From the NCBI GenBank assembly GCA_048882505.1, contig JBHLRO010000002.1:90001-122000 (forward strand): a stretch of DNA of 32,000 bases. The letters are read 5' to 3'. Below the pieces are notes generated by a model, which saw only the letters and a program-made list of their open reading frames with translations, ran no database searches and was not told where the DNA came from. Source of the DNA: Candidatus Thorarchaeota archaeon (GTDB lineage: Archaea; Asgardarchaeota; Heimdallarchaeia; Hodarchaeales; Hodarchaeaceae). Positions within the stretch are counted from its first letter, which is position 1. Each line of letters opens with the position of its first letter. The position numbers and the translations under genes are program-made. Positions 9,684-14,614 of the stretch are shown in pieces.

Positions 9684-10247
9684 TTGAGTTTTGAGACCCC
9701 ATCCAAAACCGAACTATTGAACGAGCTGGAACGCCTCAGGTTTGAATTATTAGAAACCAAAATCCCCGTTACCTTCCGTAGAGATTTTTCTGGATTTTCA
9801 TTTGAGGGAGTTTCAGTTCCTGCTGTCTCTAGAGGTAGCCAACTCGAAATACCGTACTTTATGGCTCAGATTTTGCTTGTCGATGAAGTGATTGAAGAAT
9901 TTACGCTCGAATTTCCAGATTCTCTTCAAGAACTAACAGGAGCAGTTAGAAACGAGGTACGTTCTGGTCAATTGCAGCCATTACCTCGTTTTTTTAACCT
10001 ATTATTGAAAGATTTGGTGCTAAATGATCAAGATCCAGATTCAGATTATGGCGAGGTTGACTACAAGCGTAAACGGGCCAAATATCTCCAGCTACTACAG
10101 GCCCGAGTAACAAAAATTGTTAAGATGGCCGATGGTATGCAACGGATTCCCCGCAAGCATAATATGACTGCTGAAGAACAAGTACTGTTTAACAAACTCC
10201 AGGAAATTGTTGGCGCTTATAAACACTTACTAACCAAAATCGAGTGA
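9684..10247 (+). CDS. gins23: GINS complex subunit, Gins23 (Psf2/Psf3-like, B-A domain order)
   Basis: N-terminal beta domain (IPVTFRRDFSGFSFEG...LEIPYFMAQIL), LQPLPRFF, RVTKIVKMA and MTAEEQVLFNKL. It is followed by an mcm start, the usual archaeal gins23-mcm synteny. Confidence 0.82.
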   Translation: MSFETPSKTELLNELERLRFELLETKIPVTFRRDFSGFSFEGVSVPAVSRGSQLEIPYFMAQILLVDEVIEEFTLEFPDSLQELTGAVRNEVRSGQLQPLPRFFNLLLKDLVLNDQDPDSDYGEVDYKRKRAKYLQLLQARVTKIVKMADGMQRIPRKHNMTAEEQVLFNKLQEIVGAYKHLLTKIE

Positions 10248-10273
10248 ATCAAAAGAAAAATGGAAGGAAATTT

Positions 10274-10300
10274 ATGGGTTATTCATTTGACATCAAGGGA
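10274..10300 (+). pseudogene. Orphaned 5' end of mcm (MGYSFDIKG)
   Basis: Starts 26 nt after the gins stop and matches the intact MCM N-terminus MGLSFDIKG (12533-12559) at 8/9 aa, after which homology ends abruptly. Confidence 0.8.
10286..10300 (+). repeat. 15-bp direct repeat TTTGACATCAAGGGA, left copy (attL-like)
   Basis: Exact match to 12545-12559. Flanking bases differ on both sides. Confidence 0.9.
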
Positions 10301-10314
10301 TACTCAGATTGCGT

Positions 10315-11142
10315 TTACGGTCGCGGAAATTCGGCCATTGGGCCTATGAGAAATGTGAGTTCAATATTCTCCTCATTGGTGTGCTGGATACGCAAGAGTG
10401 TGTTGTTTCCAAACTCCAGGGGCACACGATCACCAAACAAGGTGTCTGTGATGATGAGGGTTTTCTTGACAAACTCGATAGGATAGAAATTGCGAGCCTG
10501 GTGTACTCGCCCAGACGATGTGATAGGATGATGGATCGAGTAGAGAACCCTGTAATAGAGCTTATCTCGTATTTTGAAATGGATTTCCTCGGCATTGCCC
10601 TCAAACACAACAGGGTGTAGTGGGGCGTAATAACCAGGAGGGAATACCTCGCTAGGATCCTCAGGGAATGCTTCCGCAAACATGGTCATGGTCTGAATAA
10701 AGTCATTTTTTGCAATTTCAGCGAGATACGGTGGTGTTTGTATCTGATCAATTGGATCAGGGACAATCATGCCATCGGCGATGGTCACGGGGATTGGCGA
10801 GTCACCCACCCGCATTACTGCCTCCGTCTCGCTCAATTCAAACACCACAGTTTCCCCCTCCCTCCAAAATTGCACCGCTCGTACCAACTCCTCAAGGGAA
10901 AGTTGGAATTGAAGTATGCTCATCCCTGAAGTAAATGAGTAGAAAAACGAGGCAGGAAAACGAAGTATGATATCAATGATATTTCTTTCATCCTTCGTTG
11001 AAACTTGTAAGCCCTGGTCGGACACGGAGAAGATAACTTCGTCACCGGGGATGTTTTTCAGTATCTCTATGAAGGTGTGGAAGTCCTTCAACTTGTGAGG
11101 GGCGATTTCGAAGAGTTTTTCGGAAGGTTTTGTATCTCTCAC
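10315..11142 (-). CDS. Divergent PCNA-like DNA sliding clamp
   Basis: 275 aa. FIEILKNIPGDEVIFSVSDQGLQVSTKDERNIIDIILRFPASFFYSF and FYPIEFVKK...DRVPLEFGNNTLLRIQHT...LTFLIGP follow the PCNA N- and C-terminal patterns (e.g. EA.F...GL...AMD...V.M..L.L....F..Y and Y...YL......V.L.FG...PL.......L.F.LAP). Confidence 0.72.
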   Translation of the reverse strand: MRDTKPSEKLFEIAPHKLKDFHTFIEILKNIPGDEVIFSVSDQGLQVSTKDERNIIDIILRFPASFFYSFTSGMSILQFQLSLEELVRAVQFWREGETVVFELSETEAVMRVGDSPIPVTIADGMIVPDPIDQIQTPPYLAEIAKNDFIQTMTMFAEAFPEDPSEVFPPGYYAPLHPVVFEGNAEEIHFKIRDKLYYRVLYSIHHPITSSGRVHQARNFYPIEFVKKTLIITDTLFGDRVPLEFGNNTLLRIQHTNEENIELTFLIGPMAEFPRP

Positions 11143-11212
11143 CTTGAATTACTCCACTTGAGTATGAGTGAATTCTTCTCTTTTATATGACTTGTCGTAA
11201 TAGAATCTATCC

Positions 11213-11594
11213 TCAGTATTGAGAAACCACACAATGGCCATGTGTCATGCGGTACTCCGTAAGTTTTACATTTGTCCAATGACCATATTTCACCTCGGCC
11301 TGTGCTAAGACCTTGTCCGAGGGTAATCGGGTGGCCCTTGTATAATTTCGGCCACACGCCATAATTCTGTTTCCCTCGATGTTTGAATTTTGTTATTTTG
11401 GCCGTTTCAATTTTTACCCATTCTTGGAAGTCGTTTGGATAATTCCGCGCCAACCACAATAACTCGATCTCGGAAATAAACGGACAAAGCTTACAATTGG
11501 ATGGTAAGGGTATTTGATGGCCTAGGCTTCGAATGTAGCCTTGGCATGCCTTTCGATTCATCCCTTCGTCTATCAAGGGAAAATGGAAATACAT
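11213..11594 (-). pseudogene. 5'-truncated, frameshifted C-terminal part of a phage/plasmid-type PAPS-reductase-like (PP-loop/ANH) protein
   Basis: FPLIDEGMNRKACQGYIRSLGHQIPLPSNCKLCPF resembles this family. Removing one G at 11311-11312 gives ...TLGQVLAQAEVKYGHWTNVKLTEYRMTHGHCVVSQY* (stop at 11213-11215). There is no N-terminal PP-loop. Confidence 0.62.
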
Positions 11595-11598
11595 CCCT

Positions 11599-11991
11599 GA
11601 TCCCCCCGTCGTGGTTCTCCTTGCCCCTCAAAGCGGCGAAATTTTCAGTACCAGTCCCATTACAATTCGATGGCAAGCCTCCGATCCCGACCATGACGCT
11701 CTAAAATCTTCACTGTTTTACTGGGATGGGGAGGATTGGATATCCATCGATGCGGATCTTATTGTTTCGGAATACTTGTGGGATATCCAGGGTATTCCTA
11801 GCGGGGCGTACTATCGCATTAGAGTTGTGGTTAGTGATGGGTTCCTCATCGGGATTGACCAATCAAGCAGTCCCTTTTCAATAGAAAAATCCCGAGGGAC
11901 AGGGATAGAAGTGATATGGATTTTCCTCGGTATGCTCGTAACGACTATCTCAAGAACCCTAATTTCTAAAAAGTTCCGAGACCGCGGGTAA
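11599..11991 (+). pseudogene. C-terminal fragment of a cell-surface protein (Ig-like domain, hydrophobic anchor and basic tail)
   Basis: DPPVVVLLAPQSGE...ITIRWQASDPDHDAL...YYRIRVVVSDG followed by IEVIWIFLGMLVTTISRTLISKKFRDRG. No signal peptide is present and an in-frame stop lies at 11536-11538. Confidence 0.65.
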
Positions 11992-12312
11992 TTGGGGATA
12001 TCATTCCGATGAGAGGATAAACTTATTTTCCCTGTATCCCATTTTTTTCGGCAATATAGAACGTGAATTGATCGGCTCGAAGTTTTTTAAAACCAACGCT
12101 TACGAACAAAAGTAGGCTCGTAGGCTCCATTAACCCCTCCTACTTATTCTTGCATGTTAACCTCCTCTTCACCCTTTTCAGGTGAGCATTATTTTGTTCA
12201 AAGCCGCCTTTAATCTTAAAAAGGAGGAATCTGGTAAGTAACTGCCCGCTCCCAACCTAGTTAATATCTCTTCGTGGAGGCCTCGCGTATCATATCTGGC
12301 TCTACTGATCGA

Positions 12313-12468
12313 ACCCCGCTACAAAAAGAAATCATAGCCGAGATCATCCGACTTCGATCTGACTTACTCGAAACTAAAGTCCCTGTGAAATTTCTCAAAG
12401 AATTTTCGGTATTTATGTTTGCAGACATTAAAATTCACCTCGAACCCGATTTTGATAAAATCCTCTAG
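12313..12468 (+). pseudogene. Truncated second gins23 (N-terminal fragment)
   Basis: TPLQKEIIAEIIRLRSDLLETKVPVKFLKEFSVFMF vs residues 5-40 of intact Gins, TPSKTELLNELERLRFELLETKIPVTFRRDFSGFSF: 19/36 identical. It stops at 12466-12468, 64 nt before mcm. Confidence 0.82.
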
Positions 12469-12532: not shown

Positions 12533-14614
12533 ATGGGATTAAGCTTTGACATCAAGGGAAGGTTTGAAACATTCATTACTGAATTCACAGATCGTGAGGG
12601 TCATCTATACTACCATGAACGAATTGGGGAAATGGAAAGAAAAAGTCAGAAAAGCCTATTGATTTCCTATGATGACCTACTTCATCACGATCCCAAGCTG
12701 GCCGAAGAAATGTTGATAAATCCCGAGGTCTGCCTGTTGGTCGCCTCGAGCGTCTTAGAAGAGTTCTTGAATCAAATCAGTCCAATGTATGTACAAAAGA
12801 CTGAACAATTACATGTACGGATCACTGATCTCACAGATAAGGTTAATCTGCGTGCGCTCAAAACGGAACATCTCGGGAGACTTACCTGCTTCGAGGGTAT
12901 CGTGATTGGTGTTACCGAGGCCAAACCCCTCTTGATTCGCGGGGTTTTTCGATGTGCAGCCTGCGGAACGGACAATCAGATCGCGGAGTTTCCTGAAGGG
13001 ATTTATATCCCTCCTTATCGATGTAAAGAGGATCACTGTCAAAAAACAAATTCATTGCACCTACAAATCGAAAAATCCACCTTTATAGATTGGCAGAAGG
13101 TATCGATACAAGAACGACCGGAAGAACTACCCCCTGGCCAACTACCCCAGAGTATTAGTATACATATCCTCGATGATCTTGTGGATATGGCCCGCCCAGG
13201 GGATCGAGTAGAGGTGGTAGGTATCCTCAAGGCCCGGGCATCACGCCTATTAAAACGGGGCCAATTGTCCACTTACAACAAGTTTTTCCAGGGAGTAACC
13301 ATTATCAAAGAAACCGCAGAGTACGTCGATGTGGATGTTTCAGAAGAAGAAGAAAGAGAGATTATCGATCTGTCTAAATCACCCCATATCGTTGAAAAGA
13401 TCCGAAACTCGTTAGCTCCCTCGATCTATGGCCACGATGTCGTTAAGGAAGCAATCGCCTCGTTATTGTTTGGTGGGTCTGAAAAAACCACACCCGATGG
13501 GATAAAACTTCGTGGCGAAACTAACATCCTTTTAATAGGCGATCCTGGAGTTGGAAAGAGTCAGTTACTCAAATTTATAGCTAAATTGGCTCCCAGGGCG
13601 TTATATACGACTGGTAAAGGATCTACCGCCGCAGGACTGACCGCGGCTGTGATACGCGACCAAGACACAGGGGAAATTACATTGGAGGCGGGAGCCTTGG
13701 TATTAGCTGATCGTGGCATTGCCATGGTCGATGAATTCGATAAAATGCGTACAGATGACCGAGTTGCGATCCATGAAGCCATGGAACAACATTCCATTTC
13801 AATAGCCAAGGCAGGCATCGTAGCTACATTAAATGCAAGGACAGCCATCTTGGCGGCGGCCAACCCCCGTCGAGGTCGGTGGAATCCATATAAACCGACC
13901 GCTGATAATCTGAATTTACCCCCCACCATTCTATCACGGTTTGATCTCATTTTTGTGATGGAGGATAAGCCAGATCTCAAGGAAGACCGTGATAAGGCCA
14001 CACACATTCTTAACTTGCATAAATCGAAAATCCTCTCTAAAGAGCCTCCAGTACAGCAATCTCTTCTCCGGAAGTATATTGCGTATGCACGACGTGAAAT
14101 CAAGCCAACGCTTTCCGACGAGGCTCAAGAGCGGCTGCTGGAGTATTACATGACGCTCCGGAAAGAAAGTGAGCAAGTAGATGAAAAAGGAGTCCCTCCT
14201 ATCGCAATTACTCCCCGACAGCTCGAAGCGCTAGTTAGATTGTCCGAAGCTCGTGCAAAAATGCGTCTAAGTGATGTAGTTTCGTATGATGATGCGGCAG
14301 GAGCGGTAAACCTTATGAGGGTCTCCTTAGATAAGTTAGCTCGTGATACAGAAACTGGGAAACTCGATATCGATAGATATGCCTCAGATACCGATGCCCG
14401 CTCTCGACGCAATCTCGACCGTATTGAGGCACTAATTGATCGAAAAGTGGAGGAAGCCAAAACCAAAGATGCGGAACCTGCCGCTATCAAGGATATCTTG
14501 GATCAAGCTTTCGAGGAGGGTATGGATCGGGCCCAGGTGAGAAAAGTGATTGACGAGCTGATACGGCGAGGTCATTTGTTCGAACCTCGCCCGGGACACA
14601 TCGACAAGCCTTGA
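12533..14614 (+). CDS. mcm: MCM replicative helicase (693 aa)
   Basis: Zn finger CAAC...CKEDHC, Walker A GDPGVGKSQ, VDEFDKM, arginine finger SRFDL, ITPRQLEAL and a C-terminal wHTH. ATG 12533 is supported by the homologous start at 10274. Confidence 0.97.
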   Translation: MGLSFDIKGRFETFITEFTDREGHLYYHERIGEMERKSQKSLLISYDDLLHHDPKLAEEMLINPEVCLLVASSVLEEFLNQISPMYVQKTEQLHVRITDLTDKVNLRALKTEHLGRLTCFEGIVIGVTEAKPLLIRGVFRCAACGTDNQIAEFPEGIYIPPYRCKEDHCQKTNSLHLQIEKSTFIDWQKVSIQERPEELPPGQLPQSISIHILDDLVDMARPGDRVEVVGILKARASRLLKRGQLSTYNKFFQGVTIIKETAEYVDVDVSEEEEREIIDLSKSPHIVEKIRNSLAPSIYGHDVVKEAIASLLFGGSEKTTPDGIKLRGETNILLIGDPGVGKSQLLKFIAKLAPRALYTTGKGSTAAGLTAAVIRDQDTGEITLEAGALVLADRGIAMVDEFDKMRTDDRVAIHEAMEQHSISIAKAGIVATLNARTAILAAANPRRGRWNPYKPTADNLNLPPTILSRFDLIFVMEDKPDLKEDRDKATHILNLHKSKILSKEPPVQQSLLRKYIAYARREIKPTLSDEAQERLLEYYMTLRKESEQVDEKGVPPIAITPRQLEALVRLSEARAKMRLSDVVSYDDAAGAVNLMRVSLDKLARDTETGKLDIDRYASDTDARSRRNLDRIEALIDRKVEEAKTKDAEPAAIKDILDQAFEEGMDRAQVRKVIDELIRRGHLFEPRPGHIDKP
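12545..12559 (+). repeat. 15-bp direct repeat TTTGACATCAAGGGA, right copy (attR-like), codons 5-9 of mcm
   Basis: Exact match to 10286-10300. Confidence 0.9.

Follow-up and report, generated by a model that had tools for sequence, protein, structure and literature searches.

The stretch of DNA analysed here, referred to as the window, comprises 32,000 nucleotides (nt) of contig JBHLRO010000002.1 (positions 90,001 to 122,000) from a Hodarchaeales genome, Candidatus Thorarchaeota archaeon GCA_048882505.1. Within it, gins and mcm are separated by an insert of 2,259 base pairs (bp) that is bounded by exact copies of a 15-bp direct repeat, TTTGACATCAAGGGA, and that carries a gene for a highly divergent PCNA-like sliding clamp, protein P0001 (Table 1). 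The clamp frame is uninterrupted for all of its 275 codons, from GTG to TAA, and is oriented antisense to both gins and mcm. Given the positions of its stop codon and of the left repeat, the gap between them is 14 nt (10301-10314). An earlier note, made from the letters of this DNA, had described an intact frame in this orientation and at this distance from the repeat, and the coordinates agree on all three points. Upstream of the gene, the TATA-like sequence CATATAAAAG lies 37 nt 5' of the start codon and a GGAG lies 11 nt 5' of it; the pair could plausibly serve as archaeal promoter and ribosome-binding site. P0001 has an acidic isoelectric point, 4.9.

P0001 is a true PCNA homologue across both domains. 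When the single sequence was searched against the PDB with phmmer, it retrieved PCNAs exclusively, if weakly (best E-value (E) 1e-3). A profile of P0001 and its paralogue P0003, which is encoded on contig C11 of the same genome, reached E 5e-5, with every top match a PCNA and some matches covering positions 12-271. The NCBIfam models of the archaeal sliding clamp gave E 1.5e-8 for P0001 and 1.7e-12 for P0003. Furthermore, an hhalign comparison with 23 canonical PCNAs yielded a probability of 96% and E 3.6e-9 over 232 columns (20-271) that span both domains, in keeping with the PCNA-like patterns first noticed at the N- and C-termini.

The description of the clamp as highly divergent is equally well founded. 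Its identity to the host PCNA is ∼20%, it gives no match to PF00705 or PF02747 at E up to 1, and its best NCBIfam score of 34 bits falls below the curated cut-off of 293. P0003 likewise scores far under the NCBIfam cut-offs, and it exceeds a Pfam cut-off for PCNA_N only (23.7 versus 20.3 bits). The sole Pfam match of P0001 is a sub-threshold one to Rad1 (E 0.072, 12.6 bits against a cut-off of 24), and Rad9 was likewise not matched (E 0.085, cut-off 25); such weak cross-matches are expected within the clamp clan. No Rad9, Rad1 or Hus1 was present among the 50 best structural matches, which does not by itself exclude the 9-1-1 fold family.

Structural models show P0001 with a predicted two-domain clamp fold, the lack of which the earlier note had named as grounds for abandoning a clamp identity. 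For exactly this protein, a single-sequence model with a predicted template-modelling score (pTM) of 0.76 is available in the ESM Atlas, and the nearest clusters to it are archaeal and eukaryotic PCNAs (template-modelling scores 0.74-0.76, residues 9-273). An AlphaFold2 model from the two-paralogue alignment alone had a predicted local distance difference test score (pLDDT) of 35 and a pTM of 0.24, and no inference was drawn from it. With 41 canonical PCNAs added to the alignment, the pLDDT was 80.5 and the pTM 0.79, and the beta-alpha-beta pattern appeared twice, clamp-like in both halves. The top 50 Foldseek matches of this model were all PCNAs (E 1e-15 to 1e-13), the model also matched viral PCNAs, and VIA-align superimposed it on PCNAs with Z 21-22 and a root-mean-square deviation of 2.5-4 A over 231-242 aligned residues.

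Several features set the protein apart from canonical PCNAs. The atypical Pro-rich insertion noted in the second domain is FPEDPSEVFPPGYYAPLHP, which follows the first helix of that domain and, in an alignment with 41 canonical PCNAs, constitutes an insertion of 19 residues (AlphaFold2 pLDDT 59-69). In addition, P0001 has a conserved N-terminal extension of nine residues, a betaH1-betaI1 turn six residues shorter and a betaD2-betaE2 loop eight residues shorter. Among the elements that in PCNAs make the pocket for PCNA-interacting protein (PIP) boxes (interdomain loop, C-terminal domain and C-terminal tail), the interdomain loop is similar in length to that of canonical PCNA and shares its PDP motif, and the C-terminal LIGPM resembles the canonical LLAPM. 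A by-eye count found eight Lys/Arg residues in the four predicted inner helices (K17, K19, K29, R88, R94, K145, K226, K227), and the corresponding helices of the canonical PCNA encoded by this genome also hold eight.

The face of a PCNA that polymerases and the clamp loader engage carries the centre loop, the interdomain loop and the C-terminus, and the alphaA-betaB loops emerge on that side as well. By analogy with the known fold, the Pro-rich insertion should therefore lie on the front face of the clamp. It is strongly conserved between P0001 and P0003 (17/19 residues identical), as is the N-terminus (12/13), against 69% identity overall. Identity is low in the interdomain loop (7/17), the betaC2/betaD2 hairpin (4/13) and the C-terminal tail (4/9); betaD2, the subunit-interface strand within that hairpin, which pairs with betaI1 when PCNAs close into a trimeric ring, is the least conserved element between the two paralogues.

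The genome contains three PCNA-family genes: those for P0001, for P0003 (280 aa, beside the same truncated neighbours) and for a canonical PCNA, P0005, on contig C67. The latter has orthologues, 50-56% identical, in many related assemblies (labelled Hodarchaeales, Heimdallarchaeota or other Asgard names). P0001 is thus not the genome's sole, vertically inherited PCNA, an outcome that would have told against the earlier reading. P0005 and its Hodarchaeales orthologues also bear an Asp/Glu-rich tail of ∼30 residues beyond the usual LAPM motif. In a maximum-likelihood phylogeny against Asgard clamps, P0001 and P0003 group together, and the stem leading to them measures 2.87 substitutions per site. 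The pair falls outside the canonical Hodarchaeales clade (support 94/96) and stands weakly beside it (77/72). The sampling comprised Asgard clamps with one Desulfurococcus sequence as the sole non-Asgard member, and no viral, euryarchaeal or eukaryotic clamps; because it holds no viral clamps, the tree leaves host versus viral ancestry undecided.

Both copies of the divergent clamp are under purifying selection. Between the genes of P0001 and P0003, the synonymous divergence (dS) is 0.71 and the non-synonymous divergence (dN) 0.20, giving a dN/dS of 0.28, and neither gene contains a stop or a frameshift. A sister strain, represented by a 1,770-nt contig (L041) from another run of the same study, provides a second comparison. 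Across the 828-nt clamp coding region it differs at five third-codon positions, four synonymous and one non-synonymous (N146 to K); given ∼22% synonymous sites, the probability of four or more synonymous changes among five is 0.010. Through a deletion of 771-774 nt, this strain lacks window positions 11218/11221-11991, and with them the entire PAPS-like remnant and surface-protein fragment that lie next to the clamp gene in the window, yet it has kept the clamp gene and 75 nt upstream of it. The observation that the gene stayed intact while its neighbours decayed is thereby strengthened.

Two further differences were seen in the sister strain. Opposite window positions 10201-10297 (the final 50 nt of gins plus the mcm relic), it shows 13 substitutions and a 4-nt gap in ∼100 nt, and in the adjoining clamp gene of the same strain pair only 5/828 positions differ. 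Its two 15-bp repeats are unequal to each other (G10297A, C12553T).

Searches covering about 15 billion proteins in total found the divergent pair to be an orphan lineage. No relative was present in 40 related genomes, including 21 congeneric species, and no family member in 400 Asgard genomes, where the only hits were weak ones, six to canonical PCNAs and one to another divergent PCNA-like open reading frame (ORF) in genome G387. No match was found in a protein database of 5.8 billion clusters (shorter lengths included), and an exhaustive search of 1.84 billion representatives returned no family match, the only other match being P0004 (E 2e-4). Viral, metagenome and genome collections were similarly empty: no relative was found in IMG/VR, in JGI metagenome contigs or in GTDB genome contigs, and tblastn against phage and archaeal-virus records gave only a chance match at E 2. 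The clamp also had no match in PHROGs or PADLOC.

P0004 (427 aa) is a PCNA that is duplicated internally in tandem: approximately residues 1-175 recur at 176-350. The G387 frame (L044:1456-2220 (+), contig C141) belongs to an Asgard genome from another family. PF00705 recognises it at E 6e-8, and phmmer finds no match between it and the canonical PCNA of this genome; it has an FYSF-type motif in common with P0001 and is 28% identical to it over 58 aa.

The rest of the insert consists of gene fragments and non-coding DNA. The 27-nt relic of the mcm 5' end at its left border ends in the left repeat. The working mcm, the only one in the genome, owes its first four codons and its upstream region to the insert. 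The PAPS-reductase-like remnant is 76% identical at the amino-acid level to a fuller copy on contig C56, and the homology with C56 ends at 11212 and 11590. Matches of that fuller copy include the phage family phrog_424 (E 1.2e-22), SspD (E 1e-10) and BrxP (E 1e-4). In both the window and the C11 locus, the clamp gene shares the strand of the PAPS-like gene and starts ∼70 nt past the point where that gene originally ended. Over 116 nt, the surface-protein fragment shares 95% identity with the terminal part of a C79 ORF of at least 932 aa, and its dN/dS against the C11 copy is 0.32. The non-coding part shows no similarity to the regions upstream of gins or cdc6, and the gins-like fragment is 42-48% identical to the GINS of congeners. 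The clamp had been called the only intact cargo gene of the insert, and this is nearly so: its neighbours are fragments or frameshifted, but the surface-protein fragment still encodes a residual ORF of 126 aa (11611-11991).

Table 1. Features of the insert, its flanks and the canonical PCNA gene; positions refer to the window unless another locus is named.
Feature	Position	Strand	Remarks
Resident gins	9684-10247	+	left flank of the insert
mcm 5' relic	10274-10300	+	27 nt, ATG GGT TAT TCA followed by the repeat
Left copy of TTTGACATCAAGGGA	10286-10300	+	mcm codons 5-9, end of the mcm relic
PCNA-like gene, protein P0001	10315-11142	-	275 aa, GTG start, TAA stop at 10315-10317
Pro-rich insertion FPEDPSEVFPPGYYAPLHP	10612-10668	-	codons 159-177, between alphaA2 and betaB2
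Clamp-gene upstream region	11143-11217	-	TATA-like CATATAAAAG, GGAG; ∼90% identity to the C11 copy
PAPS-reductase-like 3' remnant	11213-11590	-	frameshifted; listed ORF 11139-11594
Surface-protein gene, 3' fragment	11591-11991	+	Ig-like domain and C-terminal membrane anchor; weak Big_7 match
Non-coding part of the insert	11992-12273		282 nt, no ORF; also in the sister strain
gins-like N-terminal fragment	12274-12468	+	46% aa identity to resident GINS residues 5-45
mcm	12533-14614	+	right flank; Pfam MCM E 1e-97; starts ATG GGA TTA AGC
Right copy of TTTGACATCAAGGGA	12545-12559	+	inside the working mcm
Canonical PCNA, P0005	L008:3745-4617 (G000:C67)	+	290 aa, acidic tail, passes both Pfam domains

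Sequences related to the two truncated neighbours recur elsewhere. On C56 (278-5395), a nearly full-length PAPS-like gene is divergently paired with a gene for a surface protein of 1,440 aa. Short 3' remnants of the PAPS-like gene survive at four further sites in the genome, and one congener has such a remnant at a single site. The repeats of PAPS-like and surface-protein sequence (C56:278-5395, C79:1-2798, C64:303-416 and C2:216393-216530, and in the congener G016:C135, L035:1495-1887) coincide with contig ends.

Comparison with related genomes and metagenomes indicates that the insert is a variable addition to this locus. A gins match was obtained in 19 congeners. In 18 of them orc1, gins and mcm are contiguous, with a gins-mcm gap of 15-40 nt; at the gins locus of the nineteenth there is no mcm match. 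A 269-nt metagenome contig from a different study, at depth 3, represents the empty site: it matches 10074-10285 with one mismatch and resumes at 12545, skipping exactly 2,259 nt, and the 15 nt at the joint (10285>12545) fit both sides. The same run also contains clamp-gene contigs 88-90% identical to that of the window with other sequence past the 3' end, which constitute a third variant in a third context.

Window positions 10325-11954 and the C11 block (clamp gene, PAPS remnant and surface-protein fragment) are colinear at 77-83% identity, and the C11 block contains one additional 186-nt deletion. Since the two blocks are colinear and carry the same truncations, the truncation of the neighbours most simply predates the split between the copies. 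Beyond the block, C11 carries part of a second ribK, which encodes CTP-dependent riboflavin kinase, and the contig ends inside this fragment; ribK itself lies on the other side of the block, and the two copies are 84% identical at the nucleotide level (C11:119310-119478 versus C11:117274-117442, L007). Over 59 codons their dS is 1.15 and their dN 0.046, an omega of 0.04. This ratio implies divergence under the constraint of a working gene and suggests that the fragment came from a related genome. In-situ tandem duplication as the source of this fragment was rejected because its differences from ribK are almost exclusively synonymous; for the gins-like fragment of the window, such an origin is possible. 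The two loci thus share one architecture, in which the block stands beside an apparently xenologous piece of the 5' region of its target gene.

Taken together, these results suggest that P0001 is probably a fast-evolving 'shell' PCNA derived from a mobile element and additional to the canonical PCNA, a reading in which we place moderate confidence. The clamp gene would once have belonged to a virus or plasmid-like element of Asgard archaea, downstream of a phage-type PAPS-reductase-like gene, and the present inserts would be its eroded, non-autonomous leftovers. Entry into the chromosome may have occurred by recombination via a captured piece of the target gene, namely the gins-like fragment with the mcm start in the window and the ribK fragment on C11. 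The incoming DNA could have been circular and integrated in Campbell fashion, or linear and joined by homology-facilitated illegitimate recombination. The protein itself is predicted to form a PCNA-type ring that would encircle DNA and tether partners bearing a PIP box, its partner-binding face altered by the conserved Pro-rich insertion. Because that face appears altered and the interdomain loop, C-terminal tail and betaD2 differ between the two copies, the ring could serve as an alternative recruitment platform, either in replicating the element or for the host, as an accessory clamp. Most likely, then, P0001 functions as a PCNA-type clamp whose partner specificity has changed, acquired from a mobile element and kept by selection. 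Of the two options offered in the earlier note, a clamp encoded by an element and an extra clamp subunit that has been domesticated, the element-borne one is favoured by the patchy distribution of the gene, the absence of the insert in relatives and in one contig, and the phage-type neighbour.

A number of points weigh against this interpretation. Neither copy has an integrase, replication initiator or structural gene in it or beside it, which leaves gene content and distribution as the only grounds for a viral or plasmid origin; no viral or plasmid relative of the clamp protein was found in IMG/VR or in phage and archaeal-virus records. The GC content of the gene, 46.5%, is similar to that of mcm and orc1. 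The divergent pair is placed, if weakly, beside the canonical PCNAs of Hodarchaeales, so that it may instead descend from an old duplication in the host with later acceleration. The empty site rests on the single short contig described above, at its low depth. As for the clamp itself, the better AlphaFold2 model depends on the homology claim because its alignment consists mostly of PCNAs. Finally, the window copy falls below the Pfam cut-off and has a longer branch than the C11 copy (0.43 versus 0.12), and it may be under weaker constraint.

Several other explanations were weighed. The divergent clamps could be domesticated subunits, the two paralogues joining canonical PCNA in a heteromeric or alternative ring for host repair or checkpoint functions, comparable to the PCNA1-2-3 trimer of Sulfolobales or the eukaryotic 9-1-1 clamp. 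Such a ring would accommodate the presence of three PCNA-family genes in one genome, the purifying selection on both divergent copies and the position of the window copy within the orc1-gins-mcm cluster, and the paralogues do differ most at subunit and partner contacts (4/13, 7/17 and 4/9 versus 69% overall). A core heteromeric clamp is, however, expected to be conserved lineage-wide, and this gene was found in none of the 21 congeneric and ∼400 Asgard genomes searched; its insert is even missing in one near-identical contig. Moreover, the Rad1 and Rad9 profile matches lie far below cut-off (E 0.07-0.09), and a recent survey of the Asgard replisome places PCNA among the mostly single-copy genes (PMC12680538). 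A domesticated subunit therefore appears unlikely. A bolder proposal, which we consider rather improbable, is that the clamp gene is the selected core of an undescribed integrase-less Hodarchaeales cassette that would spread from one related genome to another by Campbell-type or homology-facilitated recombination via captured host 5' fragments (gins-mcm in the window, ribK on C11). It would encode a specialised clamp, possibly in a mixed ring of the two paralogues to which the host PCNA may or may not contribute, and the conserved front-face insertion would redirect the choice of replication or repair partners.

A decaying leftover, in which the frame is open by chance and has no present function, is quite improbable. 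Every other gene of the insert is a fragment, as such a leftover would predict, and the window copy has the longer branch and the sub-threshold Pfam score. The clamp genes have nevertheless retained intact frames in both copies at a dS of 0.71 with a dN/dS of 0.28, the sister strain shows four synonymous changes to one non-synonymous, the upstream region with its TATA-like box is conserved, and the insertion is 17/19 identical between the paralogues. Very improbable is a dedicated clamp tethering the DNA modification or defence activity of the PAPS-reductase-like enzyme, a relative of SspD, DndC and BrxP (matches to SspD at E 1e-10 and to BrxP at E 1e-4): although the two genes are adjacent on the same strand at both loci, the PAPS-like gene is truncated at both and gone in the sister strain with the clamp still selected, the 277 nt downstream of its C56 copy (to the contig end) contain no clamp gene, and the clamp has no PADLOC match.

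The preferred reading, a shell PCNA from mobile DNA, has precedents. Two marks of shell genes in the sense of Raymann et al. 2014 are found here: the gene is extra to a core copy, and it is patchy and fast-evolving (0/21 congeners, 0/40 relatives). An integrated element may be indicated by the 15-bp repeats, by the absence of the insert in relatives and in one contig, and by the phage-type neighbour; no integrase or other hallmark element gene is present. An example of a shell PCNA is PCNA2 of Thermococcus kodakarensis, encoded by TKV3, where only PCNA1 is required for viability (PMC3914693). Like the present gene, PCNA2 (TK0582) is a second PCNA beside a core PCNA, lies in foreign DNA (TKV3 is an integrated element) and is patchily distributed. 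The core copy in T. kodakarensis is the one required for viability, and here it is the one with orthologues in relatives. TK0582 is, however, a recognisable PCNA that passes the family models and resides in a large element with other viral genes. P0001, in contrast, is only ∼20% identical to the host PCNA, fails the curated cut-offs and has a 19-residue insertion and shortened loops; its locus is a 2.26-kb insert without an integrase, and the divergent clamp occurs twice in the genome.

Mobile DNA of Asgard archaea is also known to encode clamps. PCNA homologues are reported from the CRISPR-targeted elements 10H_0 and 7H_42-like mobile genetic elements, the former of which also encodes a PAPS reductase (10.1101/2021.07.29.453957), and in Opia, Nidhogg and Skoll viruses (PMC11529989). 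The combination of PCNA and PAPS reductase in 10H_0 recalls the inferred ancestral neighbourhood of the present gene. These viruses and elements are large and carry replication and structural genes, and no sequence link connects this clamp to the viral contigs searched.

A different comparison is offered by the PCNA1-2-3 set of Sulfolobales and by Rad9-Hus1-Rad1, in which, as here, a genome holds several diverged paralogues of the PCNA fold, with divergence at the interface and partner-binding elements. Those paralogues are lineage-conserved core machinery, whereas the divergent pair described here is confined to one species and to variable DNA. The lineage-wide conservation of the Sulfolobales type was not found: the divergent paralogues were present in no other genome of the genus, class or phylum that was searched. 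Since shell PCNAs and clamps of Asgard elements have already been reported, the present gene belongs to a known kind. It differs from earlier cases in its extreme divergence without detectable relatives, in a conserved insertion on the presumed partner face, in the presence of two diverged copies and in the minimal, integrase-less inserts that carry them.

Hodarchaeales count among the archaea known to be nearest to eukaryotes. The findings show that an Asgard genome can bear extra, very fast-evolving clamps, probably brought in by mobile DNA, which replisome counts and clamp phylogenies should set aside. At this locus, a population-variable insertion splits the gins-mcm pair and replaces the start of mcm together with its upstream region. 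The locus also provides a clean natural experiment, in which one clamp gene has been selected and kept amid eroding surroundings. If the protein does form a ring with a modified partner face, it could show how clamps diversify their sets of clients.

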